Assembly: GCA_045536935.1 (NCBI GenBank)
Contig: JAZSOO010000005.1
Location: forward strand, 2,804 to 66,803
DNA: 64,000 nt
Direction of reading: 5' to 3'
Source: Eubacteriales bacterium
GTDB taxonomy: Bacteria > Bacillota > Clostridia > Oscillospirales > CAG-382
Made by a program: the position numbers and the translations under genes. Shown here one piece after another: positions 2,344 to 63,999 of the stretch; positions within the stretch are counted from its first letter, which is position 1, and each line of letters begins with the position of its first letter. The notes beneath the pieces are model-generated. The model was not told the DNA's origin. It saw nothing but the letters and a program-made list of their open reading frames with translations, and made no database searches.

Positions 2344-2418
2344 GCTGGTGTGGCGCAGGGGTAGCGCAATTGATTCGTAATCAATAGGCCGAGGGTTCAA
2401 ATCCCTCCACCAGCTCCA
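2344..2418 (+). tRNA. tRNA-Thr (anticodon CGT), CCA encoded
   Basis: Hand-folded cloverleaf. Acceptor GCTGGTG/CACCAGC, D arm GCGC-AGGGGTA-GCGC, anticodon arm ATTGA-TTCGTAA-TCAAT, T arm GAGGG-TTCAAAT-CCCTC, discriminator T, then CCA. Confidence 0.9.
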
Positions 2419-2419
2419 G

Positions 2420-2464
2420 AAAAGAACCTACATTTGTTTATAAACAAATGTAGGTTCTTTTCAA
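2420..2464 (+). terminator. intrinsic terminator after tRNA-Thr
   Basis: Perfect ~20-bp palindrome AAAGAACCTACATTTGTTTA/TAAACAAATGTAGGTTCTTT followed by a T-rich run. Confidence 0.75.
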
Positions 2465-2631
2465 CTAAGTGTTCCGCTTTGCGGAACGTGAAGTTTCCTT
2501 CGGAAGTGAAGCGCACTTCGTGCGTGAAGTGTCCCTTCGGGACGTTATTCGGAACGCTTAACTTCACTGCTCTATAGGAGCAACTTCACTATGCCGTAGG
2601 CATAACTTCACTTGGCGCAGCCAAACTTCAC
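2463..2631 (-). repeat. composite hairpin / 7-mer repeat element, copy R1 (inverted relative to the copies at 63205 and 63453)
   Basis: Layout is AACTAAGT, then GTGAAGT-type 7-mers at 2488, 2506 and 2524, then ACTTCAC at 2561, 2583, 2605 and 2625. Each 7-mer is separated from the next by a short perfect hairpin, for example GTTCCGC-TTT-GCGGAAC or TATGCC-GTA-GGCATA. Confidence 0.8.
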
Positions 2632-2657
2632 TATGTATTTCTTTTTGGAGTCTTTAT

Positions 2658-3764
2658 ATGTCAGCCATTCGTTTATTGAAAAAGCACACCGTATTTTTTA
2701 TTGCGTTTGCGGTTGCGGTAATTACCTGCTTTTTTGTTCCGCCTGATGCGGAATATCTTGATTATTTTGATTGGAACACGCTTTCCTGTTTATTTATCAC
2801 CTTGGCGGTCGTTTGCGCATTACGTAATATTAAATTCTTTACGATTCTCGCAAGAAAGCTTGTTCTGATAACCGGTAATCTTCGAAGCTTGTTTTTGATG
2901 TTGATAATCGTTACGTTTATCGGTTCTATGCTTATTGCGAACGATATGGCACTTATAACCTTCCTGCCTCTTGGATATTTTGCTCTTTCGGCATCCAAGA
3001 AGGAAAATTATGCGGCATATCTCTTTATTCTGCAGAATATCTCTGCGAATTTGGGCGGTATGCTTACACCTTTCGGCAATCCCCAGAATTTATATCTTTA
3101 TTCCTATTTCAACATTCCGACGGGCGAATTTTGCGCTATCATGCTTCCCCCGTTTTTACTTGCAATTTCCCTTTTGGCTGTTTGCTGTCTTTTCGTCAAA
3201 TCCGAACGTCTTACTATCAACGAAGAATTTCCCGAAAAGCTACATAAGAAAAAAACGGTTCTTTATACCGTTTTGTTCCTTATTTCGATTCTTATTGTTT
3301 TCAGAGTTATTCCCTTTTTGGTGGGTTTAATAGCTATACCGCTAGTACTCTTTTTTGTAGATAAAGAAGCTTTGCGTGCCGTTGATTATCCCCTTTTGGG
3401 TACGTTTTTCTTCTTTTTCATATTTGCAGGCAACCTTGCAAGAATAGATGCGGTAAATTCCTTCTTCTCGATGCTTTTACAAAAGGACACGCTTACCGTT
3501 TCCCTATTTTCTTGCCAAGCGATAAGCAACGTACCTTCGGCGATATTGCTTTCTCGCTTTACAAACGATTATCACGCACTTCTTTTGGGTGTCAACATCG
3601 GCGGAACGGGTACACTTGTTGCTTCTCTTGCAAGCTTGATAACCTTCAGCGAATTTAAAATTCTTTATCCCGAAAGAACCAAGAAATACCTCTTGATGTT
3701 CACACTTATCAATTTTGCGTTCTTGATCATTATGGCTTTGGCGGCAAAATTATTTTTTATATAA
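2658..3764 (+). CDS. polytopic anion permease, ArsB/NhaD (citrate-transporter-like) superfamily
   Basis: 368 aa and very hydrophobic with many TM segments. It shows the duplicated-half architecture and GNPQN-type motif (TPFGNPQNLYL) seen in this superfamily. Family assignment is by eye only. Confidence 0.55.
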   Translation: MSAIRLLKKHTVFFIAFAVAVITCFFVPPDAEYLDYFDWNTLSCLFITLAVVCALRNIKFFTILARKLVLITGNLRSLFLMLIIVTFIGSMLIANDMALITFLPLGYFALSASKKENYAAYLFILQNISANLGGMLTPFGNPQNLYLYSYFNIPTGEFCAIMLPPFLLAISLLAVCCLFVKSERLTINEEFPEKLHKKKTVLYTVLFLISILIVFRVIPFLVGLIAIPLVLFFVDKEALRAVDYPLLGTFFFFFIFAGNLARIDAVNSFFSMLLQKDTLTVSLFSCQAISNVPSAILLSRFTNDYHALLLGVNIGGTGTLVASLASLITFSEFKILYPERTKKYLLMFTLINFAFLIIMALAAKLFFI

Positions 3765-34310: not shown

Positions 34311-34352
34311 GAAAATATAAAAGGGCGCACTTACTTAACAGCAAATGCGCCC
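34311..34352 (-). terminator. expression-platform terminator of the ZTP riboswitch
   Basis: On the minus strand, GGGCGCA-N16-TGCGCCC followed by TTTTATATTTT. The 5' arm overlaps the conserved CUGGGCG 3' end of the aptamer. Confidence 0.7.
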
Positions 34353-34467
34353 AGACGGTCGGCTTTTATACTCGGAAATATATCCTTTCCGAGGCTTTAC
34401 ATTCCGTAAAGCGAGTTCTTTGTTTCCTTGTGGTGCTCCACAAATTCCCGTCAGTCGCAAAGAACTT
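34348..34467 (-). ncRNA. ZTP (pfl-motif) riboswitch aptamer
   Basis: On the minus strand, a P1 helix AGTTCTTTG/CAAAGAACT encloses GACTGACGG...GTGGAGCACCAC. Downstream lies GCCGACCGTCTGGGCG, and CCGTC can form a pseudoknot with GACGG. These are the conserved cores of the pfl/ZTP motif, in the typical position ahead of purine and folate genes. Confidence 0.8.
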
Positions 34468-34480
34468 TATTGACTTTTTA

Positions 34481-54084: not shown

Positions 54085-54942
54085 TTACTTCTTATCAAAA
54101 AGTGCTCTGCGTTCGGTTGAGTGGCGCATCATCTTTCTCATTCCGTCAATATCCTCGGATTTGAGCATACTTCTCAATTCGTTGAATTTTGCCGTGAACA
54201 GATCCATTTGTTCAAGCAAAATATCCTTGTTGGCTACGAAAAGCTCGCTCCACATCAAATCGTTGATGCGTGCGATTCTTGTAAGGTCTCGGAACGAGTC
54301 GCCCGTGAACTTTTCCATATCTTCTTTATCGTTACACGTCATAAGAGTTACGGCGATACAGTGAGTGAGCTGAGAAAGGAAGCCTATCATTTCGTCATGC
54401 TCCTCGGGCGAGAGTTTGGTCACGTTTGAAAAACCGAGCAGTCTGCCAAGCTCCATACAGGTCTGTATCGCTTCGGGAGTGTTTTTATCGGTGGGAGTTA
54501 CAATATAGTTTGCACCGATGAACATTTTGTCCGTGCTGTTTTCAACACCCGAGACCTCACGGCCTGCCATAGGGTGTGCCGCAATAAATTCCACGTCGGG
54601 ACGAAGCATATTTTGGATATTATACACGATACTTCCCTTAACACCGGTTACGTCGGTAATGAGCGCTCCGCTTTTGAAAAGACTTTGATTCTGTTCTATC
54701 CATTCAACGAACACGTGCGGATACAGTGCAAAGATAACAAGGTCTGCACTGCCGATAATCTCTTCATCGATCTCGGTTGAGCCCTCGTCGATCATGCCCT
54801 CTCTTATGGCATAGTCTATCGAGCTTTGGTCGAGAGTAATTGCGCTGATATGAAAACCGAAACGTTTTAACACCTTTGCATAGCTTCCGCCCAAAAGACC
54901 GAGCCCGACAATTAATATTTTCTTACTTACGTCAACTATCAT
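54085..54942 (-). CDS. tyrA: prephenate dehydrogenase
   Basis: Rossmann motif ILIVGLGLLGGS and a PDH core (HPMAG). It is the last gene of the aro operon. Confidence 0.88.
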   Translation of the reverse strand: MIVDVSKKILIVGLGLLGGSYAKVLKRFGFHISAITLDQSSIDYAIREGMIDEGSTEIDEEIIGSADLVIFALYPHVFVEWIEQNQSLFKSGALITDVTGVKGSIVYNIQNMLRPDVEFIAAHPMAGREVSGVENSTDKMFIGANYIVTPTDKNTPEAIQTCMELGRLLGFSNVTKLSPEEHDEMIGFLSQLTHCIAVTLMTCNDKEDMEKFTGDSFRDLTRIARINDLMWSELFVANKDILLEQMDLFTAKFNELRSMLKSEDIDGMRKMMRHSTERRALFDKK

Positions 54943-56141
54943 AATAATTCCACTTCTGCTTTAAGCTGTTTTATATCCTCAAAAAACGACGGATAGCTTT
55001 TTCTTACGGCTTCTATACCCTCTATCGTACCGCCGATCTTTGAAAGGACAACCGACAATGACATTACGATACGGTGGTCGTTGTGTCCGTTGAGTGCCAA
55101 CCCTTTATATTGAAGGTTTTGCTTTGGTACGGTTATTGTATTATCTCCGAAAATCAATCCGCCACCGAGCTTTGAAAGCTCTTCGTGCATTGCAAGACCT
55201 CTGTCGCTTTCCTTTGCTTTTAATCGGTCTGTGCCTATGAAGGTAGCACCGTTTTTCATTGCCGAAAGAGCAAACAATATCGGCCCGAGGTCGGGACAAT
55301 CGGAGATATCAAGCGTTGGTGTGCCGTTTGAGATTTGGTCGAAATAATCCGAATACACTCTGTCACCCTGCAGGCTGTCTGATTTCAGGTTTCCTATCCG
55401 AATATCCGAGCCGAGATGATTGAATGCATCGAGGAATGCGGCATTGGAATAATCTCCCTCGATCTTGCCCGAAAAGGAGTTCATCTTTGAAGGTTTTATA
55501 TCAATTCTGTATTCGTCGGCAAACGATACTTCCGCACCGAAAGATCTGAGGGCAGATATTGTCAAATCAATATACGATCTGCTCTCAAAGGGCGGAAGAA
55601 TCTCTATTGATGAATCTTTATTCAAATATACAAGAGCAAAGATAAGTCCCGTAATAAACTGACTGCTTATATCTCCCCGTACCTTATATGAACCGCTGTC
55701 AAGATTTCCGCAAAGTGTTACGGAAGTTTTGTCTTTGGTAAAAGCAAAGCCTTTTTCTTGGCAAAGAGCTTCATATACGTCAAGCGGTCGTTCGAGAAGC
55801 CTTTCACTGCCCTTAAGGACAACGGTTTTGCCCAAGCACAAGGCAAGAGGAATGAAAAAGCGAAGAGTGCTTCCGCTTTCTCTGCATTCCAATATCGGAG
55901 CATCAGACTGCATAAATCCTTGCGGATCTACTGTCACCTTGTCCTCATCGACGGTTATATTTGCCCCCAATGCTTTAAGGCAATCGATACTTGCAAGAAT
56001 ATCCTCGCTGTAATCAACGCCCGAAAGAACACATTTATTCCCCGACAAAGCCGCACCGATAAGGTATCTGTGCGCCATACTTTTGGAAGGCGGTGCAGAT
56101 ATTGTTCCTTTCAATATGCTTGGCTTGAATATTGCTGTCAT
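54939..56141 (-). CDS. aroA: 3-phosphoshikimate 1-carboxyvinyltransferase (EPSP synthase)
   Basis: 400 aa with EPSPS motifs (PPSKSMAHR, LKAKESDR, NGHNDHRIVMS). Confidence 0.93.
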   Translation of the reverse strand: MTAIFKPSILKGTISAPPSKSMAHRYLIGAALSGNKCVLSGVDYSEDILASIDCLKALGANITVDEDKVTVDPQGFMQSDAPILECRESGSTLRFFIPLALCLGKTVVLKGSERLLERPLDVYEALCQEKGFAFTKDKTSVTLCGNLDSGSYKVRGDISSQFITGLIFALVYLNKDSSIEILPPFESRSYIDLTISALRSFGAEVSFADEYRIDIKPSKMNSFSGKIEGDYSNAAFLDAFNHLGSDIRIGNLKSDSLQGDRVYSDYFDQISNGTPTLDISDCPDLGPILFALSAMKNGATFIGTDRLKAKESDRGLAMHEELSKLGGGLIFGDNTITVPKQNLQYKGLALNGHNDHRIVMSLSVVLSKIGGTIEGIEAVRKSYPSFFEDIKQLKAEVELL

Positions 56142-56142
56142 C

Positions 56143-56571
56143 TTATTTTTCCTCGATAAGAAAATCTATTGCTTCAAGGTATCCGTCGGTGCCGTGTCCT
56201 GTTATAGTCTTAACGCAAGCAAGGCGAACGTAGCTTATCTGACGGAAATCCTCACGTTCCTCTACTTTCGAGATATGAACCTCAACAGTCGGGATATTGA
56301 CAGATTTTACGGCATCAAGAATTGCGATGCTCGTATGGGTATAGGCACCCGGATTTATAACGATACCGTCGGCAGAACCGTATGCACCTTGAATCTTATC
56401 CACAAGGTCGCCTTCGTGGTTGGATTGGAACAGCTCAACGTCTATATTCTTCTGCTTGCAATGGTTTTCTATTTTTGCCACAAGGTCGGCATAGGTTTCT
56501 TTTCCGTAATGGTCGGGTTCACGAATGCCGAGCATATTCAGGTTTGGTCCGTTTATGACAAGTATCTTCAC
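56143..56571 (-). CDS. aroQ: type II 3-dehydroquinate dehydratase
   Basis: MKILVINGPNLNMLGIREP...FQSNHEGDLVD...NPGAYTHTS. Confidence 0.95.
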   Translation of the reverse strand: MKILVINGPNLNMLGIREPDHYGKETYADLVAKIENHCKQKNIDVELFQSNHEGDLVDKIQGAYGSADGIVINPGAYTHTSIAILDAVKSVNIPTVEVHISKVEEREDFRQISYVRLACVKTITGHGTDGYLEAIDFLIEEK

Positions 56572-57815
56572 GCTATCTGCTCCGTTCTTTTTGCTAAAAT
56601 GTATTCCGCTTCCGCATCGGGCGTTTCCATATCGGGAACGGTTACGTCGGCGGTCGATCTATAGATATTAATTCTTTCGTTATATAGCTTTATGAGCTTA
56701 TCTTCGGTATTTGAAAGCGGTCTGTCAATTGTTGCACAAAGCCTTGACGGTCGTGCATCGATGAAGAACAGCTTGCCGTTGCGTTTTAGGCTTCTGACGT
56801 TTTCTTCTCTTAAAACCGCACCGCCGCCCGTGGATATGACCTTGCAGTTTTTTGAGGATACGTCACGGATGACCTCGGTTTCTAAATTTCGGAAGTAGGT
56901 TTCGCCTTTTGTTTCAATAAGCTCTTTTATACTGCATCCGCAACGCTTTTCTATTTCGGTATCGGTGTCGATAAACTCAAATCCGTCAAGATTTAAAAGC
57001 TTGCCCACCGTGCTTTTTCCGCTTCCGGGCATTCCGGTAAGTACTATATTCTCCTTTGATGCAAGAACCGATGCAAACACCTTGTCGGCAACGGTCTTTT
57101 CGATTTTGGTATCGAGAAATCTCTCTACCGCAACCACCGCCTGCATTACGAGCATATAAAGTCCGCCTTCTGCCTTGATCCCTCTTGCCTTTGCATCTAA
57201 AACAAGATTTGTGCAGAGGGGGTTATAAACCACGTCGATTACGCCCTCGAGGAGAGAAAACGAAGAAATATCTATAGGCTTCGATTCGCAATCGGGATAC
57301 ATTCCCGACGGTGTGGTATTTATGATAACGTTGGCATCGGAATGCAACGTTACGGCTTCTTCATAGGTTATATGTTCGTCGGTCTTTCGTCTGCTGACCG
57401 TTAATATCTGCGAAGCACCCATATCGGTTGCAACGACAAAAGCCGTTTTGCTTGTTCCGCCCGTACCGAGAATGAGAACCTTTTTATCTTTAAGGTCGAT
57501 ACCCACCCTCTCGATGAGAGCCTTCATTCCGTAATAATCGGTATTATAACCGTAAAGACTGCCGTTACGGTTTACTACGGTGTTAACTGCTCCGATACGC
57601 TTTGCGATGTCACTTACCGAATTTAGATACGGTATGACCGTCTGCTTATAAGGAATGGTCACGTTTATTGCTTCAAATTCCTTTTTCTCAAAGAACGGCT
57701 GTATTTCTTCCTCTGCAAGCTCGATAAGCTCGTATTTATAATCGGCAAGCTGAGAATGAATTTCCTTTGAAAAGCTATGAGTGAGCTTCTTGCCGATACA
57801 TCCGTATTTTTTCAT
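56568..57815 (-). CDS. bifunctional shikimate dehydrogenase / shikimate kinase fusion
   Basis: The N-terminal ~265 aa are AroE-like (SFSKEIH, LGTGGTSK). The C-terminal ~150 aa are AroK-like with P-loop GMPGSGKSTVGK. Confidence 0.88.
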   Translation of the reverse strand: MKKYGCIGKKLTHSFSKEIHSQLADYKYELIELAEEEIQPFFEKKEFEAINVTIPYKQTVIPYLNSVSDIAKRIGAVNTVVNRNGSLYGYNTDYYGMKALIERVGIDLKDKKVLILGTGGTSKTAFVVATDMGASQILTVSRRKTDEHITYEEAVTLHSDANVIINTTPSGMYPDCESKPIDISSFSLLEGVIDVVYNPLCTNLVLDAKARGIKAEGGLYMLVMQAVVAVERFLDTKIEKTVADKVFASVLASKENIVLTGMPGSGKSTVGKLLNLDGFEFIDTDTEIEKRCGCSIKELIETKGETYFRNLETEVIRDVSSKNCKVISTGGGAVLREENVRSLKRNGKLFFIDARPSRLCATIDRPLSNTEDKLIKLYNERINIYRSTADVTVPDMETPDAEAEYILAKRTEQIA

Positions 57816-57816
57816 T

Positions 57817-58905
57817 TTATTTCATCCAATCCGTGCCGAATCTCATTGAAAGCATATCGCACATTACAATTGCAGAGGCAGCATCCTGCACCACTCTTGC
57901 TCTGTGTACGATTGCGGGGTCGTGTCTTCCCTTTCCTTCTATGGTAGTTTCGGTCATTGTTTTGAAATCTATCGTAGATTGCGGTTTGAATATCGTAGGT
58001 GTCGGTTTGATTGCGGTACGGAAGATTATGGGCATACCGTTGGTGATGCCTCCGTTGATACCGCCGTTATTGTTGGTTGTTGTGATGACCTTACCGTTAT
58101 TCATACGCATAGGGTCGTTTGCTATACTGCCACGCATATCGGCAATCGCAAAGCCTGCGCCGAATTCGATTCCCTTCACCGCAGGGATAGAAAACATCAT
58201 ATGCGAAAGCATACCTTCTACAGAATCGAACCAAGGCTCGCCAACGCCTTCGGGTACACCGATGATTGCGGTTTCGAGGATACCGCCCACGCTGTCGCCG
58301 TTGGAGGAAGCTTTGACGATAGCTTCTTTCATTTTTTCTCCGATATTATCGTCAAGCACCGCAAAGGTTTTTGCGTTTACCGTGTTTATATCTGCCGACA
58401 AATCATTAAATTCCCTATCCGAAACACCTGCACATTTTTTAACGTGTGTTCCGATATAGATTCCCTTTTGCTCCAACGCATATTTACATATTGCACCTGC
58501 GGCGACAAGTGCGGCAGTTATTCTTCCGCTGAAATGTCCTCCTCCACGTGAATCCTGATAGCCGTGATATTTACATTCTGCGGTATAGTCTGCATGGGAC
58601 GGACGGGCAACGGTTTTCATTTCCGAGTAATCGCCGCTTTTGACGTTTTCGTTGGGGATAAGGATAGTTATGGGTGTTCCTGTGGTTTTATTGTTTATCA
58701 CACCGCTGACGATCTTATATTCGTCTTTTTCTTGTCTTGGCGTAGATATATCTCCGTTGGGACGGCGAAGTGTGAGAAGATGGGCGATATAGTCGTGGTT
58801 GATTTCTATTCCGGGCGCAATTCCGTCGATGACCGCACCGATATATTCTCCGTGGCTTTCTCCGAACAAAGTTACTGCTACGCTGTTTCCGAACGTATTT
58901 TTCAT
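57817..58905 (-). CDS. aroC: chorismate synthase
   Basis: GESHG, RPSHAD and GRHDP motifs. Confidence 0.95.
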   Translation of the reverse strand: MKNTFGNSVAVTLFGESHGEYIGAVIDGIAPGIEINHDYIAHLLTLRRPNGDISTPRQEKDEYKIVSGVINNKTTGTPITILIPNENVKSGDYSEMKTVARPSHADYTAECKYHGYQDSRGGGHFSGRITAALVAAGAICKYALEQKGIYIGTHVKKCAGVSDREFNDLSADINTVNAKTFAVLDDNIGEKMKEAIVKASSNGDSVGGILETAIIGVPEGVGEPWFDSVEGMLSHMMFSIPAVKGIEFGAGFAIADMRGSIANDPMRMNNGKVITTTNNNGGINGGITNGMPIIFRTAIKPTPTIFKPQSTIDFKTMTETTIEGKGRHDPAIVHRARVVQDAASAIVMCDMLSMRFGTDWMK

Positions 58906-59924
58906 TCTGATAACCCTTCCAAAACTTTTTTTGCCGTTTCGATCACTTCAAGGCATCCTGTTGTTTTCATTTCAAAACTACCTATTTCGTTTACCGTTGT
59001 TACGGTCACGCTATCGCCGTTTGCCTTCTTATCATGGAATGCGGCTTTTGTGATCTTATCCCAATCGTAATTTATTTTACGATATAAATTGCACTTTTTC
59101 AAGACCTTGATCACTCTCGGTCGAATTGCTTCTCCGCACATAGGAAGCATTCCGAGCGCAACGCATTCTCCGTGATAGAGCTCGCTCATTCCCTCACTGC
59201 TCTCTATACCGTGTCCTACGGTATGGCCGAAGTTGAGTATCTTGCGAAGTCCAGATTCCTTTTCATCCTGCTCGACCACATCTTTTTTGATTTTGAGCGA
59301 ACGAACGATTATTTCATCTATATTGTCCTCAATATCCTTATTTTCGAAAATGCCAAAAAGCTCTTTATCGGAGGTAAGCGCCATTTTGACAGCTTCGGCA
59401 AGGCCGTTTGAGAGCTGTCTTTCGGGAAGAGTTTTCAAAAGATCGGGGTCGATAAGAACCTTTTTGGGTTGATAGAACGCACCCACGATATTTTTAACTC
59501 CGCCGAAATTAATTGCGGTCTTTCCGCCTATCGAGGAATCTATTTGAGAAAGAAGCGTTGTGGGTATATTGTAAAAATCTATACCACGCATATATGCAGA
59601 TGCCGCAAATCCCGAAATATCTCCGACAACACCGCCGCCGATTGCAACAACACAATCCTTGCGTGAAAAGCCGTTATCAAGCATAGTTTGAAGCAGTTTT
59701 CCGAACGTTTCCATACTTTTTGATGCTTCGCCCTGCTCTATTTTGCAGATAACGGCATTTTTACTTTGTTCTGCAACCGTCACGGCATATTCCTCGGGAA
59801 CGCCCGAATCGGTTACTATAAGTACGTTTCTATTTAAATTTAATTGTGTTTTTGCATTTGAAAGGATACCTCTTTCTACGATTATGTCGTAGCTATCCTC
59901 GCCCAAATTCATACGAATCGTCAT
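58902..59924 (-). CDS. aroB: 3-dehydroquinate synthase
   Basis: GGGVVGD.GFAAS and PTTLLSQIDSSIGGKT motifs. Confidence 0.93.
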   Translation of the reverse strand: MTIRMNLGEDSYDIIVERGILSNAKTQLNLNRNVLIVTDSGVPEEYAVTVAEQSKNAVICKIEQGEASKSMETFGKLLQTMLDNGFSRKDCVVAIGGGVVGDISGFAASAYMRGIDFYNIPTTLLSQIDSSIGGKTAINFGGVKNIVGAFYQPKKVLIDPDLLKTLPERQLSNGLAEAVKMALTSDKELFGIFENKDIEDNIDEIIVRSLKIKKDVVEQDEKESGLRKILNFGHTVGHGIESSEGMSELYHGECVALGMLPMCGEAIRPRVIKVLKKCNLYRKINYDWDKITKAAFHDKKANGDSVTVTTVNEIGSFEMKTTGCLEVIETAKKVLEGLSE

Positions 59925-59932
59925 TTTTTCAC

Positions 59933-61021
59933 CTATATTTCGGTATGAGGTGCGAAAGCACCTGCTACTTTAACTATATCACAGACCTTATTTAAATCTT
60001 CAAGCATTTTTTGTCCGTTGTCGCTGTTAACCGTGCCGTCGATCTCAATATAGAAATAGTACTGCCAAGAATGTTTTTTCATCGGTCTGCTGCGTAATGC
60101 TGTCATATTGTATCCGTATTGACCGATTATGCTGACCGCATTCGCAAGCGAACCTGCTTCGTGCTTGACCGTCAACATCAAAACAGTGTTTGAAAGTGTT
60201 GAGTCTTTTGCACTCACTTTTGAAAGAACCGCAAATCGTGTTGTATTTTCTCCGCTTTTGTTGATATTTGCTTCAAGCACCTTCAAACCGAAGATCTCTG
60301 CAGTCTCCATACTTGCAATTGCACCGAGAGATCTATCGTTTGCCTCTGCAACAGTTTTTGCGGCAAGAGCAGTATTGTTGGACTCTTCAGCTTCAAACCC
60401 ACGCATTTCAATATAATCGTGACACTGGCTTAGTGCCTGCGGATGACTTGTTACCTTTTTAATATCTTCTACCGTCGCACCTTGAACGCCAAGAAGATTT
60501 TGGTGGATCTCCAGCTCGTATATTCCGTTAATGAAAAGCTCGCCCGAGAAGATAAGGTCCATCGTCTGCCCTACTTCGCCTGCATAGCTGTTTTCAATGG
60601 GGAGCACCGCTACGTCGCTTTCACCCTTGACGACAGAATCGTAAGCCGCCTTGAAATCACCGTAGGAAACACGGTTTCCGTTTGGGAATATCCGTCCTGC
60701 GGCAATATGTGCAAAAGCTCCCTCCACACCGCTGTAAGCGACCTTCAAACCGTTTTGCAAACGGTGTTGATATGCACGGGAAATGGACATTATATTTTTG
60801 AGAAAATCGATATAATATCCCTTTAATATTTCATCTTCGACGTATGCGGAATTCCGCTCTATGACTTCTTTTTCACGTTTTTCGTCGAGAATCGGAAGTC
60901 CGTATTCCTTTTTATGCTCATAGACCGTTTCGGCGGCTTTCATACGTTCAACAAACAGCTTCGCCATTTGCTCGTCCACCGAATTTATGATCTTTCTTGC
61001 TTCTTCCAATTTATTTGACAT
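59933..61021 (-). CDS. pheA: bifunctional chorismate mutase / prephenate dehydratase (P-protein)
   Basis: An N-terminal CM helix region (ARKIINSVDEQMAKLFVERM), then a PDT domain (VAYSGVEGAFAHIAA) and an ACT domain. The ATG at 61021 lies 6 nt after AGGTG. Confidence 0.88.
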   Translation of the reverse strand: MSNKLEEARKIINSVDEQMAKLFVERMKAAETVYEHKKEYGLPILDEKREKEVIERNSAYVEDEILKGYYIDFLKNIMSISRAYQHRLQNGLKVAYSGVEGAFAHIAAGRIFPNGNRVSYGDFKAAYDSVVKGESDVAVLPIENSYAGEVGQTMDLIFSGELFINGIYELEIHQNLLGVQGATVEDIKKVTSHPQALSQCHDYIEMRGFEAEESNNTALAAKTVAEANDRSLGAIASMETAEIFGLKVLEANINKSGENTTRFAVLSKVSAKDSTLSNTVLMLTVKHEAGSLANAVSIIGQYGYNMTALRSRPMKKHSWQYYFYIEIDGTVNSDNGQKMLEDLNKVCDIVKVAGAFAPHTEI

Positions 61022-61032
61022 TCTTTTCACCT

Positions 61033-62061
61033 TTAAAGCTTTTCTGCGATATCGAAAATAAGTCTTTCTGTCTTTTCCCAGCCAAGGCAGGGGTCGGTGA
61101 TGGATTTACCAAAGATATGTTCTTCTGCCTTGCAAGCGCCGTCTTCAAGATAGCTTTCGATCATCAAGCCTTTGACAAGACGTTTGATATCCGCATTTTG
61201 ATTACGGCTGTGAACGATATCCTTTGCGATACGGACCTGTTCGAGATATTTCTTGCCCGAATTGTTGTGGTTTGTATCAACGATAACCGAAGGATTTGTA
61301 AGGTTGGATCTTTCGTAAAGCTCTTCAACTCTGAGCAAGTCTTCGTAATGATAGTTAGATATGCTTCTGCCTGCATAGTCGAGGTAACCACGCAAAATTG
61401 CGTGTGCATAGGGGTTGCCGTCGCTGGTGACTTCCCAACCACGGTAGATGAAGGTATGGCTTGACTGTGCGGCTACGATGGAGTTCATCATAACGCTTAG
61501 GTCACCGCCGGTGGGGTTCTTCATACCAACGGGTGCGCCTATACCGCTTGCGGTAAGTCTATGCTGTTGGTTTTCGACCGAACGTGCGCCGATGGCAACG
61601 TAGGAAAGCAGATCGGAAAGGTAACGGTAATTTTCGGGATACAGCATTTCGTCGGCACAGGAAAAATCATAATCACGAAGTGCCGCCAAATGAAGCTCAC
61701 GAATGGCTACAATACCTTTATACATATCGGGTTTTGCTTCAGGGTCGGGTTGATGAAGCATACCCTTATATCCCTGTCCCGTGGTTCTCGGCTTGTTAGT
61801 ATAGATACGGGGGATAATGATTATCTTATCGGATACCTGCTCTTCGATTCTGCGAAGGCGTGATATATATTCAAGCACGGGTTCGCTATGGTCTGCAGAG
61901 CAGGGTCCTACCACGAGTATAAATTTATCTAAACTGCCGTCAAACACCGCACGTATACTTGCGTCACGTTCTGCCTTGACCTGCTCCATACGCTCGGTTA
62001 GCGGATATTCTTTTTTGACTTCTTTGGGAATGGGGAGTTTTCTGTGGAAATTCATTTGCAT
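61033..62061 (-). CDS. 3-deoxy-7-phosphoheptulonate (DAHP) synthase, class I
   Basis: VVGPCS...PRIYTNKPRTTGQGYKGM motifs. The ATG at 62061 lies 9 nt after AAGAGG, and the longer listed N-terminus runs into the leader terminator. Confidence 0.88.
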   Translation of the reverse strand: MQMNFHRKLPIPKEVKKEYPLTERMEQVKAERDASIRAVFDGSLDKFILVVGPCSADHSEPVLEYISRLRRIEEQVSDKIIIIPRIYTNKPRTTGQGYKGMLHQPDPEAKPDMYKGIVAIRELHLAALRDYDFSCADEMLYPENYRYLSDLLSYVAIGARSVENQQHRLTASGIGAPVGMKNPTGGDLSVMMNSIVAAQSSHTFIYRGWEVTSDGNPYAHAILRGYLDYAGRSISNYHYEDLLRVEELYERSNLTNPSVIVDTNHNNSGKKYLEQVRIAKDIVHSRNQNADIKRLVKGLMIESYLEDGACKAEEHIFGKSITDPCLGWEKTERLIFDIAEKL

Positions 62062-62095
62062 GATCTTGTACCTCTTTTTATGCAGGATCGCTTTG

Positions 62096-62146
62096 AAAAA
62101 TAAAAAATCCGCACCAATATGCCTTAAAAGCATAACGAATGCGGAC
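62096..62146 (-). terminator. attenuator terminator in the aro operon leader
   Basis: On the minus strand, a long imperfect hairpin TCCGCATTCGTTATGC-ttttaag-GCATATTGGTGCGGA followed by TTTTTTATTTTT, 35 nt before the DAHP synthase RBS. Confidence 0.7.
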
Positions 62147-63136: not shown

Positions 63137-63165
63137 ATTATACAACTGTTTCCATTACTTTTCAA
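63137..63165 (-). promoter_or_regulatory. consensus promoter (extended -10) of the hypothetical gene
   Basis: On the minus strand, TTGAAA (63165-63160), a 17-nt spacer, then TG-TATAAT (63144-63137). Confidence 0.6.
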
Positions 63166-63204
63166 TAGAGAAATCCTGTACGTAAAATCAAGCAAAAAAT
63201 TTTT

Positions 63205-63372
63205 ATGAAGTATCGGCTAACGCCGATGTGAAGTTATGCCCACGGCATAGTAAAGTATTGCGCTATCACGCAAAATGAAGTTAAGTGCGCCCTAATTTCC
63301 GCAGAAAGTTCACTGTCCGCAGGACAACTTAACTTGCGAAGCAAACTTCATGCGCCGAAAGACGCACTTAGT
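63205..63372 (+). repeat. composite hairpin / 7-mer repeat element, copy R2a
   Basis: GTGAAGT-type 7-mers at 63205, 63228, 63250 and 63275. ACTTCAC-type 7-mers at 63307, 63327, 63345 and 63366. Short hairpins sit between them. Confidence 0.8.
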
Positions 63373-63373
63373 T

Positions 63374-63406
63374 GAAAAAAGCACTTCTTTCGAAGTGCTT
63401 TTTTTC
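63374..63406. terminator. terminator-like hairpin attached to R2a
   Basis: GAAAAAAGCACTTC-tttc-GAAGTGCTTTTTTT. Confidence 0.65.
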
Positions 63407-63452
63407 TTGGCTTACACTACAAAAATAGAAACCGCTAAAAGGCTTGATTTTA

Positions 63453-63619
63453 GTGAAGTATCAGCTGTGCCGATGTGAAGTTATGGCTTGCGCCATAGTG
63501 AAGTTTTGTGCTTCGCACAAAGTGAAGTTAAGTGCGCCCTGATTTCCGCAGAAACTTCACTGTCCACAGGACAACTTAACTTGCGAAGCAAACTTCACAC
63601 GCCGAAAGACGCACTTAGT
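63453..63619 (+). repeat. composite hairpin / 7-mer repeat element, copy R2b
   Basis: GTGAAGT at 63453, 63475, 63498 and 63522. ACTTCAC, ACTTAAC, ACTTCAC and ACTTAGT at 63554, 63574, 63592 and 63613. The right half is nearly identical to R2a. Confidence 0.85.
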
Positions 63620-63620
63620 T

Positions 63621-63652
63621 GAAAAAAGCACTTCGAAAGAAGTGCTTTTTTC
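63621..63652. terminator. terminator-like hairpin attached to R2b
   Basis: GAAAAAAGCACTTC-gaaa-GAAGTGCTTTTTTC. Confidence 0.65.
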
Positions 63653-63809: not shown

Positions 63810-63885
63810 TGGCAGGGGCACTAGGACTTGAACCCAGGACCAACGGTTTTGGAGACCGCGACTCTACCAACTGAGCTATACCCCT
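63810..63885 (-). tRNA. tRNA-Trp (anticodon CCA), CCA encoded
   Basis: Hand-folded on the minus strand as AGGGGTA-TA-GCTC-AGTTGGTA-GAGT-C-GCGGT-CTCCAAA-ACCGT-TGGTC-CTGGG-TTCAAGT-CCTAG-TGCCCCT-G-CCA. Confidence 0.9.
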
Positions 63886-63923
63886 ATATACAAAAACATT
63901 GAATAGATATTCAATGTTTCTGT

Positions 63924-63999
63924 TGGTGCACCTTCGGGGACTCGAACCCAGGACCCACTGATTAAGAGTCAGTTGCTCTACCAACTGAGCTAAAGGTGC
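63924..63999 (-). tRNA. tRNA-Lys (anticodon CTT), CCA encoded
   Basis: Hand-folded on the minus strand as GCACCTT-TA-GCTC-AGTTGGTA-GAGC-A-ACTGA-CTCTTAA-TCAGT-GGGTC-CTGGG-TTCGAGT-CCCCG-AAGGTGC-A-CCA. There is one T-stem mismatch, and the gene ends one base before the window edge. Confidence 0.85.

Follow-up and report, generated by a model that had tools for sequence, protein, structure and literature searches.

Gut-1 RNAs (RF01706) were reported from 43 human-gut metagenome sequences and rated as certain RNA, with no organism or function given (Weinberg et al. 2010, PMC2864571). Of their occurrence the paper says human-gut metagenomes and nothing more, and both its text and the Rfam model are limited to a 77-nt segment, the 5′ half of the architecture described here (PMC2864571). 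Our literature search found Gut-1 mentioned only in that original paper (Weinberg et al. 2010) and nowhere later, and searches with the heptad strings introduced below returned unrelated primer matches only. Small proteins of the family PF05635, the 23S rRNA-intervening sequence proteins (S23p), include Avd, a pentameric four-helix-bundle protein with a positively charged barrel that binds RNA in the ribonucleoprotein of diversity-generating retroelements (DGRs). S23p open reading frames (ORFs) are located within intervening sequences of 23S rRNA, which RNase III excises (PMC4990558). Here we analyse a 64,000-nt stretch of DNA from an Eubacteriales bacterium (contig JAZSOO010000005.1, positions 2,804 to 66,803), hereafter the window, which carries three composite elements of repeated heptads and hairpins that are best read as extended relatives of Gut-1 and whose homologues recur behind tRNA operons and ahead of PF05635 genes. 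Each of the window elements follows the same basic plan of about four GTGAAGT heptads, a centre and about four ACTTCAC heptads, with a hairpin between neighbouring heptads. They are located as follows, with strands given in the probable sense orientation that is argued for below:

63205 to 63374, minus strand: unit 1, the distal copy of a tandem pair, with a Gut-1 match at 63302-63374 (minus) of 41.4 bits
63453 to 63621, minus strand: unit 2, the tRNA-proximal copy of the pair, with a Gut-1 match at 63549-63621 (minus) of 42.9 bits
2462 to 2635, plus strand: copy 3, in opposite orientation to units 1 and 2, with a Gut-1 match at 2462-2535 (plus) of 42.2 bits
63529 to 63538, minus strand: central segment of unit 2, TAAGTGCGCC on the plus strand and GGCGCACUUA on the sense strand, whose partner in helix P0 (see below) lies at 63610-63619

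An initial annotation made from the letters of the window had described two adjacent heptad/hairpin units of about 170 nt at 63183-63652, and the sequence reads as described there; it missed copy 3, and many further copies are found in relatives. On the minus strand, the first arm of unit 2 runs from CAACUAAGU through a hairpin, GUGAAGU, a hairpin, GUUAAGU, a hairpin and GUGAAGU to another hairpin, followed by the centre GGCGCACUUA and four ACUUCAC heptads with three hairpins between them. The heptads of unit 1 are partly degenerate (ATGAAGT, GTAAAGT, AGTTCAC, ACTTAAC, and ACTTCAT). Mean column identity between the two units is 90%, and their right halves together with the adjoining hairpin (63266-63404 versus 63513-63651) are 91% identical, in agreement with the near-identity noted initially. 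The left halves are more diverged with spacers that are still self-complementary, and all three hairpin pairs that had been listed there as carrying compensated stems are correct. This identity of the Gut-1 halves, set against the compensated divergence of the distal halves, suggests partial gene conversion or differing constraints. GTGAAGT occurs 20 times in the window versus 6.1 ± 2.7 expected, the spaced pair GTGAAGT-N12-20-GTGAAGT occurs 6 times versus 0 expected, and both units fold much better than shuffled sequence (z = -4.8 and -5.4); the tandem pair is therefore more than chance. Copy 3 has its heptads and layout in common with units 1 and 2 but not its hairpin sequences.

Rfam calls nothing at the window elements when its curated gathering thresholds are applied. 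With reporting by E-value, the tRNA-proximal halves match Gut-1 at 42.9, 42.2, and 41.4 bits, which does not reach the 50-bit gathering cut-off but is still significant over the whole window (E of about 5e-5 to 1e-4), and the distal halves match on the opposite strand with 36.3 bits at 2578-2645 (minus) and 26.8 bits at 63451-63533 (plus). The agreement extends over model positions 1-77, with three hairpins and four linkers aligned and GUGAAGU as the linker. Gut-1 and the window elements are thus alike in three consecutive short hairpins with a conserved GUGAA-type heptad between them and in UUCG-like loops, and both Gut-1 and the relatives of the window elements come from gut bacteria, while the heptad itself differs (GUGAAGU in the window versus GUGAAAU or GUGAUAU in Gut-1). 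The wider architecture is shared as well, in BAAZ01000095, BAAZ01025322, and BAAV01002358 of the authors' Stockholm file. The flanks in this file show the same composite, with three to four GUGAUAU heptads, then GGCGAAUAUAA, then three to four AUAUCAC heptads, as well as composites of GUGAAAU with AUUUCAC; in addition, the 5′ end pairs with the centre as in the window elements, a tRNA and terminator lie upstream in BAAZ01025322, and BAAV01002358 has copies in tandem. These composite arrays argue that the Rfam Gut-1 model covers only the 5′ half of what appears to be a larger two-armed element. The composite architecture, the tRNA link, and the PF05635 link are absent from the Gut-1 paper (PMC2864571), and the sources that we read say nothing of the full two-armed architecture, of P0 switching with the first hairpin, of named Clostridia in which the elements sit behind tRNA operons, or of the association of subfamily-specific heptads with PF05635. 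On this evidence the window elements are an extended GUGAAGU variant of Gut-1, a known motif with no assigned function, and very probably a structured RNA of that family. The earlier statement that no described class has this design consequently fails, given that the halves are sub-threshold Rfam Gut-1 matches and that the published flanks hold the same composite.

Homologues of these elements were gathered with a heptad-pattern scan of one genome per species, which gave at least 120 loci, and with a more specific pattern in metagenomes, which gave at least 120 further loci. About 45 true homologues among the matches listed in the first scan are all from Clostridia metagenome-assembled genomes (MAGs) and belong to Acutalibacteraceae, Oscillospiraceae, Christensenellaceae (Christensenella), Ruminococcus, Faecousia, Scatosoma, and many rumen or gut "Clostridia bacterium" bins; the remaining matches are unrelated tandem repeats from other phyla. 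The extended Gut-1 family is widespread in gut and rumen Clostridia. A parsed set comprises 77 distinct full elements including unit 1 of the window, and their commonest layout (41/77 elements) is four GTGAAGT, three ACTTCAC, and a terminal ACTTAGT. The exact heptads occupy 267/302 positions for GTGAAGT and 200/248 for ACTTCAC, and the hairpins between them vary in sequence from element to element. Other layouts were seen besides these full elements: "half" elements with four GTGAAGT-hairpin modules followed by GTTAAGG and one long hairpin without an ACTTCAC array, and a divergent arrangement in which three ACTTCAC are directly followed by three GTGAAGT. These half or divergent variants occur at L014, L027, L059, L106, and L117 (Christensenella, Ruminococcus, and Clostridia MAGs) as well as at L081 and L112, and an insert of about 150 nt separates the two arrays at L097.

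Covariation was assessed in 43 non-redundant elements, with pair statistics derived from a module-based parse and a MAFFT alignment (A2, row 1 of which is unit 2) and with shuffle controls that ignore phylogeny. Across the tested hairpins and heptad helices, 96.7% of cells are paired versus 83.1% after shuffling, cells with changes on both sides number 186 versus 51.9 ± 6.5, and the observed covariation score was reached by 0/500 shuffles. Sliding the partners by one to three columns lowers the share of paired cells to 35-47%, and 15 of the 19 tested hairpin pairs have changed on both sides. The pairing, the double changes, and the shuffle controls together establish selection on the predicted structure of the elements, as the initial annotation had proposed from just two copies when it spoke of selection on structure rather than sequence.

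Read in sense order, the first arm consists of ACUAAGU, a hairpin that we call G′, three modules of GUGAAGU plus hairpin, and a short spacer leading to the central segment GGCAAACUUA, and the second arm consists of three modules of ACUUCAC plus hairpin and a final ACUUCAC. The 5′ segment CUAAGUUUGCC has two possible partners: pairing locally it forms hairpin G′, and pairing with the centre it forms a 10-bp helix, P0, which in unit 2 corresponds to the ability of the central TAAGTGCGCC to pair with the unit end GACGCACTTA. On alignment A2, P0 (columns 5-14 with 118-127) is 97% paired with 33 double-change cells and hairpin G′ is 98% paired with likewise 33 double-change cells, each score being reached by 0/500 shuffles; the covariation of both rests on the same three 5′ columns. 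The two predicted pairings are mutually exclusive and both conserved, and since P0 competes with the first hairpin, we infer that the RNA of the element has two conformations.

The second notable feature of the architecture is the relation of the heptads to each other. Across subfamilies, the 3′ arm without exception carries the reverse complement of the 5′ heptad, and heptads are identical within an element. Because they stay identical while the hairpins drift freely, a constraint on their sequence beyond pairing and hence a sequence-specific factor are implied. The initial annotation had envisaged a nested rod of 7-bp helices, and this proposal stands in part. Energy predictions for the sense strand of 41 elements give means of -65.2 kcal/mol for the minimum free energy, -61.8 kcal/mol for the nested rod, and -54.3 kcal/mol for the P0 fold, and the rod comes within 2 kcal/mol of the minimum in 18/41 elements. 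It is the minimum-energy fold of copy 3 (-65.7 kcal/mol), and for unit 1 with its degenerate heptads the P0 fold is the minimum-energy structure (-60.2 kcal/mol). Its energies are thus plausible, but register-specific compensation between nested heptads had to be rejected, with no excess in the nested register (2 compensated pairs and 27 mismatches) over shifted registers (2 and 0 compensated pairs). On balance we lean slightly towards the view that the heptads of both arms pair. Some resemblances of the heptads to known sequences were set aside. GUGAAGU is, we assume, identical to the 3′ strand of 16S rRNA helix h44 around A1492/A1493 in the decoding site, which we treat as coincidence given that other subfamilies use unrelated heptads; the attC core site of integrons (GTTRRRY) fits GTTAAGT only as a low-information coincidence; and uptake-signal sequences and 6S RNA were considered and dropped.

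All three window elements have the same neighbourhood in the same order, tRNA, hairpin, and then the AACTAAGT end of the element:

63621 to 63652, no strand assigned: hairpin 5′ of unit 2 on the sense strand, with a perfect 14-bp stem between an A-run and a T-run, GAAAAAAGCACTTC-GAAA-GAAGTGCTTTTTTC
63374 to 63404, no strand assigned: hairpin between unit 2 and unit 1, with the same stem and an inverted loop, TTTC
63810 to 63999, minus strand: tRNA-Lys (63924-63999) and tRNA-Trp (63810-63885), the genes that precede units 1 and 2 in sense direction
2344 to 2418, plus strand: tRNA-Thr (tRNA call), the gene that precedes copy 3 in sense direction
2421 to 2465, no strand assigned: terminator hairpin of tRNA-Thr in the window sequence, immediately 5′ of copy 3

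Copy 3 directly follows tRNA-Thr and its terminator hairpin, and the gene behind it (2658-3764) encodes a CitMHS transporter (Pfam CitMHS) and has its ribosome-binding site about 12 nt past the last heptad; the gene downstream of unit 1 encodes a small membrane protein and has a promoter of its own. The hairpins beside the units have perfect stems of 13-14 bp with an A-run on one side and a T-run on the other, and with this symmetry their strand is not assignable from the window sequence alone. Among the homologues, about 24/77 elements abut the 3′ end of a tRNA, in constant orientation and with at least 12 tRNA identities, and about 20/77 have a small PF05635 gene downstream on the same strand, often with its ribosome-binding site 10-25 nt past the last heptad and often without an intervening promoter. 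A strong hairpin precedes the element in most of the 77 homologues, in some without a U-tract, and none is recognisable in L076, L082, L098, and L163. Copies in the window and in relatives thus lie mostly beside terminators and tRNA genes, which the initial annotation had suggested as a point to check. At L241, the sole promoter (TTGACA-17-TATAAT) lies ahead of tRNA-Gln and is followed by terminator hairpin, element, ribosome-binding site, and PF05635 gene, and therefore tRNA, element, and PF05635 form one unit.

Asymmetries between the two strands point the same way. Counted on the strand that reads tRNA and then element, which is also the Rfam orientation of Gut-1, G·U pairs number 14 versus 3 on the antisense strand in helix P0, 5 versus 0 in the core of the first hairpin, and 12 versus 6 in the other hairpins, so that G·U and A·C total 31 versus 9 on the sense strand. 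Tandem G·A/A·G mismatches are found in 14 distinct hairpins, all in sense orientation (14 versus 0), capped by GAA or GNRA loops, and the same sites would read as destabilising U·C/C·U on the antisense strand; GNRA-type loops are located in the 3′ half of the elements. From the G·U bias, the tandem G·A motifs, and the gene context, it seems likely that the sense strand is the tRNA-sense strand, i.e., minus for units 1 and 2 and plus for copy 3, and we infer that the elements are transcribed in this direction. The "terminator" would then precede each unit, so that the initial annotation, in which it follows, had probably read the wrong strand. A promoter of their own on the GTGAAGT-first strand was rejected, with promoter-like sites no commoner than in shuffled sequence (6 versus 5.2), and no conserved -35/-10 was seen upstream of the sense 5′ hairpin in 11 loci examined.

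Two other ways of reading the elements were weighed. Two convergent small RNAs, one Gut-1-type half per strand (left on plus, right on minus) meeting at the centre, would account for the opposite-strand Gut-1 matches of the distal halves (26.8 bits at 63451-63533 and 36.3 bits at 2578-2645) and for loop types that are equal when each half is read on its own GTGAAGT strand, and a weak promoter-like site lies at 63159-63188 (plus). However, the tandem G·A motifs and G·U bias of the distal half favour the tRNA-sense strand and not its own GTGAAGT strand, P0 joins the centre to the far end on a single strand, the PF05635 ribosome-binding site 10-25 nt past the distal half leaves no space for an antisense promoter in many loci, and promoter-like matches show the lack of excess just mentioned, all of which makes this arrangement quite improbable. 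Still a shade less probable, in our view, is a passive role behind highly expressed tRNA operons, as a back-up terminator or a cluster of RNA-stabilising hairpins with no specific partner: it fits the position just past the terminators of tRNA and protein genes and the many stable hairpins, but leaves the invariant heptads, their exact reverse complements, and the lineage-specific heptad types unexplained together with the three-way P0 covariation and the link to PF05635.

The gene downstream of many elements in relatives encodes a protein of 117-121 aa that starts with MSESKLRTQSMDFAV or MKDSELRTRAKALAL and is assigned to Pfam PF05635 at E = 7e-16 and 5e-13; a profile built from such proteins hits PDB 2RLD, whose entry comprises five chains (E = 4e-38). 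To our knowledge, Avd is the only characterised member of this family. PF05635 is very large: for one subfamily, more than 8000 protein clusters were retrieved, and the best 120 of them all share 88% or more identity with the query. One cluster alone comprises 2670 sequences; such conservation and abundance are unusually high for a small uncharacterised gut-metagenome protein. Of 14 PF05635 genes that were sampled independently, 11 or more are preceded by an array of a repeated 7-mer. At PF05635 loci, the composite hairpin design uses GTGAAGT/C, GTGAAAT, AATGAAG, TGAAATC, or TCGATAT, and other loci have arrays of ATTATTC, CAATTGA, or GTTGAGA without hairpins between them. The following loci (L241-L258) were fetched by protein similarity and not by heptad:

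P0072 locus (L241-L250): tRNA-Gln, hairpin, and GTGAAGT/C element upstream
L251 and L252: tRNA-Leu, hairpin, and GTGAAGC...CTTCAC upstream
L253 and L254: GTGAAAT...ATTTCAC upstream, the classical Gut-1 heptad, in tandem at L254
L255: long palindrome of repeated units upstream, behind two tRNAs
L256: four contiguous ATTATTC plus inverse upstream, behind a tRNA fragment
L257: five contiguous CAATTGA/CAATGGA upstream, over the promoter
L258: three ATATCGA upstream

Second PF05635 genes were met by chance in loci that had been fetched by pattern:

L146: AATGAAG/CTTCATT in the full hairpin-containing architecture
L133 and L217: TGAAATC/GATTTCA in the full architecture
L048: TCGATAT/ATATCGA in the full architecture
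L086 (Acholeplasmataceae MAG): four GTGCAGT-hairpin modules, then three GTGAAGT-hairpin modules, all direct
L116 (Bacteroidales MAG): contiguous GTTGAGA and GTGAAG repeats

Judged from these loci, the heptad of the putative elements changes with the PF05635 subfamily, and L116 and L086 suggest that the association of PF05635 with repeats may reach across phyla, beyond Clostridia. In the 360 nt that surround the start codon, a 7-mer and its reverse complement together reach four or more copies at 37/46 PF05635 genes versus 12% of 1480 other ORFs of the same loci, a comparison that is inflated since the loci were chosen for repeats. On one contig (L039), an element linked to PF05635 and an orphan element occur together and share their heptad. 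PF05635 is the best candidate for a partner of the elements because its gene lies directly downstream of about one quarter of them and because each subfamily has its own heptad, and it may well be this partner, though we stop just short of favouring the idea outright.

Functionally, the closest parallels to such a pairing of protein and RNA, proposed as likeness and not as membership, are found in the 23S intervening sequences with S23p genes and in the RNA that Avd binds in DGRs. In Coxiella, the 23S intervening sequence with its S23p/PF05635 ORF likewise has the gene in a stable-RNA unit, self-complementary RNA flanks, and no promoter of its own (PMC4990558). However, the host unit is a tRNA operon here and helix 45 of 23S rRNA there, the PF05635 gene lies downstream of the structured element instead of inside it, modules of heptad plus hairpin are a feature of the elements described here, and the window copies come without any ORF. 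The DGR system combines a PF05635-like pentameric four-helix-bundle protein with a structured non-coding RNA encoded beside its gene, as may be the case here if the protein does bind; the RNA bound by Avd has a Spacer fold where our elements have repeated heptads, and no reverse transcriptase, template, or variable repeat was noticed in the loci read closely, among which no systematic search was made. Type III toxin-antitoxin systems (ToxI) also place a repeated RNA module upstream of a partner gene in the same unit, with a terminator that sets their ratio, and the arrangement here is similar. ToxI repeats are identical 36-nt units that are cut by the toxin, whereas only the 7-nt linker is conserved in our elements, which in addition have a reverse-complement array, and PF05635 is not known to us as an endoribonuclease. 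The modules here differ from each other, the terminator precedes the array, and the downstream genes in the window encode a CitMHS transporter and a small membrane protein, which sets them apart from type III antitoxins.

Like the REP/BIME, ERIC, BOX, RUP, and Correia repeats, the elements are short, intergenic, multi-copy, hairpin-forming, and often near terminators; copies of those repeats are conserved in sequence, whereas here only the heptads are and the hairpins all differ yet pair. They also differ from clustered regularly interspaced short palindromic repeats (CRISPR) in a repeat of only 7 nt, self-complementary hairpin spacers, and the inversion of half the array. Several intergenic copies per genome beside terminators and tRNA genes could nevertheless point to miniature mobile DNA, i.e., a miniature inverted-repeat transposable element (MITE), REP/BIME, or IS200/IS605 derivative that inserts by terminators or tRNA genes and folds into hairpins when its DNA is single-stranded. 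A 21-nt duplicate of the tRNA-Trp 3′ end adjoining the unit 2 hairpin would be in line with this idea, and so would the PF05635 ORFs found elsewhere in 23S rRNA intervening sequences, which have been termed selfish elements (PMC4990558). Against it, copies of the same genome share nothing but heptads and architecture (copy 3 versus units 1 and 2), terminal inverted repeats other than the heptads are absent, no target-site duplications were seen, and compensatory evolution over the long term at fixed loci points to purifying selection on a resident structure. A blastn search with one unit found no match in phage and plasmid collections, and no RAYT or transposase link was noticed among the part of the window's ORFs that was screened. 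Mobile DNA is the least probable of the readings that we considered.

The best overall model, which we regard as evenly poised, is that the elements are a structured RNA, that PF05635 recognises its identical heptads, and that the window copies are orphans. The RNA would arise by transcription through, or RNA processing at, the strong hairpin that ends the tRNA operon and would contain a 5′ array of heptad and hairpin repeats, the Rfam Gut-1 part, and a 3′ array of reverse-complement heptads. The two arrays would zip into a rod of identical 7-bp helices linked by four-way junctions, with the 10-bp helix P0 between 5′ end and centre rivalling the first hairpin. Hairpin-less versions (L255 and L256) would make a plain long stem, which suggests the heptad duplex as the common denominator of versions with and without hairpins. 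It would be the heptads that a PF05635 pentamer recognises; at PF05635 loci the element would probably be an operator or leader of the PF05635 mRNA or the scaffold of an RNA-protein complex, and the window copies could be additional binding sites in trans or leaders of other genes, such as the CitMHS gene for copy 3. In its full form, with Gut-1-type elements as cognate nucleic-acid ligands of PF05635 bearing subfamily-specific heptads, forming a ribonucleoprotein or autoregulatory module on stable-RNA operons, and with orphans acting in trans, we put this proposal forward tentatively.

Several observations weigh against the model of a PF05635-bound RNA. There is no PF05635 homologue in the 64-kb window, and the majority of homologous elements are not next to a PF05635 gene, at frequencies that are biased in any case since the loci were gathered by heptad pattern. 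On the sense strand, the element starts just past a terminator and would need read-through or processing, and the nested heptads lack register-specific compensation as described above. Moreover, the two halves follow a mirror-image grammar with U-rich loops on the GTGAAGT-reading strand in both, which fits inverted DNA sites, and the direct contiguous heptads over the promoter without an inverted partner at L257 and L116 fit a DNA operator better. The main alternative is accordingly that the heptads are double-stranded DNA sites, four each way, for PF05635 or another sequence-specific protein, in the manner of an iteron-, operator-, or centromere-like array in which the palindromic spacers are incidental or serve as cruciforms or terminators. 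The mirror symmetry in heptad orientation, loop composition, and 22-24 bp spacing speaks for such sites, as do identical heptads that co-vary with the subfamily of the neighbouring protein. Yet drifting spacers that keep their Watson-Crick complementarity would be needless for double-stranded DNA binding, the surplus of G·U over A·C and the tandem G·A motifs are confined to one strand, and the elements are constant in orientation relative to the genes around them and form part of a transcription unit. Cruciforms would also not extrude stably from stems as short as 4-8 bp, and nothing came up in support of the DNA cruciform that the initial annotation had offered as an option. We therefore consider double-stranded DNA sites unlikely, if clearly the most serious alternative, and retain the structured RNA as our working model.

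Some details around the tandem pair deserve mention. The hairpins at 63374-63404 and 63621-63652 have the same stem and differ in the loop, TTTC versus GAAA, so that their 31-nt segments are perfectly reverse-complementary, and this inversion of the loop only is possibly the signature of hairpin-loop inversion by template switching after tandem duplication. The 63621-63652 hairpin is a predicted bidirectional terminator or processing hairpin, and hairpins near-identical to it in sequence are present in L187 and L042. The 11-nt inverted repeat that had been noted around unit 1 is exact (63183-63193, TAAAATCAAGC; 63442-63452, GCTTGATTTTA) and brackets unit 1 plus hairpin; it would close a long-range stem around unit 1 on the sense RNA, and no equivalent was found in the one other tandem locus looked at (L240). 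Next to the hairpin of unit 2, the segment 63654-63752 contains the exact 21-nt duplicate of the tRNA-Trp 3′ end (63810-63830; CAAGTCCTAGTGCCCCTGCCA on the minus strand), 135 nt downstream of the intact tRNA-Trp. The duplicate and a GC-rich insert give a Y-shaped fold with an 11-bp stem and two hairpins, and the segment folded together with the tRNA-Trp terminator reaches ΔG = -75.8 kcal/mol (z = -6.8). It has no ARAGORN or Rfam call and no homologues among the fetched loci, and candidates for its nature are a pseudo-tRNA, an integration scar, and an unclassified small RNA. Just upstream of the small membrane protein gene beside unit 1, the region 54939-62133 (minus) presumably is an aromatic amino-acid operon (aroA, aroQ, an aroE/aroK fusion, aroC, aroB, a pheA-like gene, and DAHP synthase), as judged by ORF layout and reading of the translations. 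Unrelated to the elements, the window also carries a ZMP/ZTP riboswitch (RF01750) at 34342-34468 (minus), with 48.1 bits against a cut-off of 39 bits.

Gut-1 has been in Rfam since 2010 without organism, context, or function. It can now be placed in named lineages of Clostridia, including Acutalibacteraceae, Oscillospiraceae, and Christensenellaceae, and two kinds of neighbour recur around it, tRNA operons on the upstream side and genes of PF05635 on the downstream side. A subfamily-specific repeat beside PF05635 genes provides a direct experimental handle on both of these orphans, the protein and the RNA.

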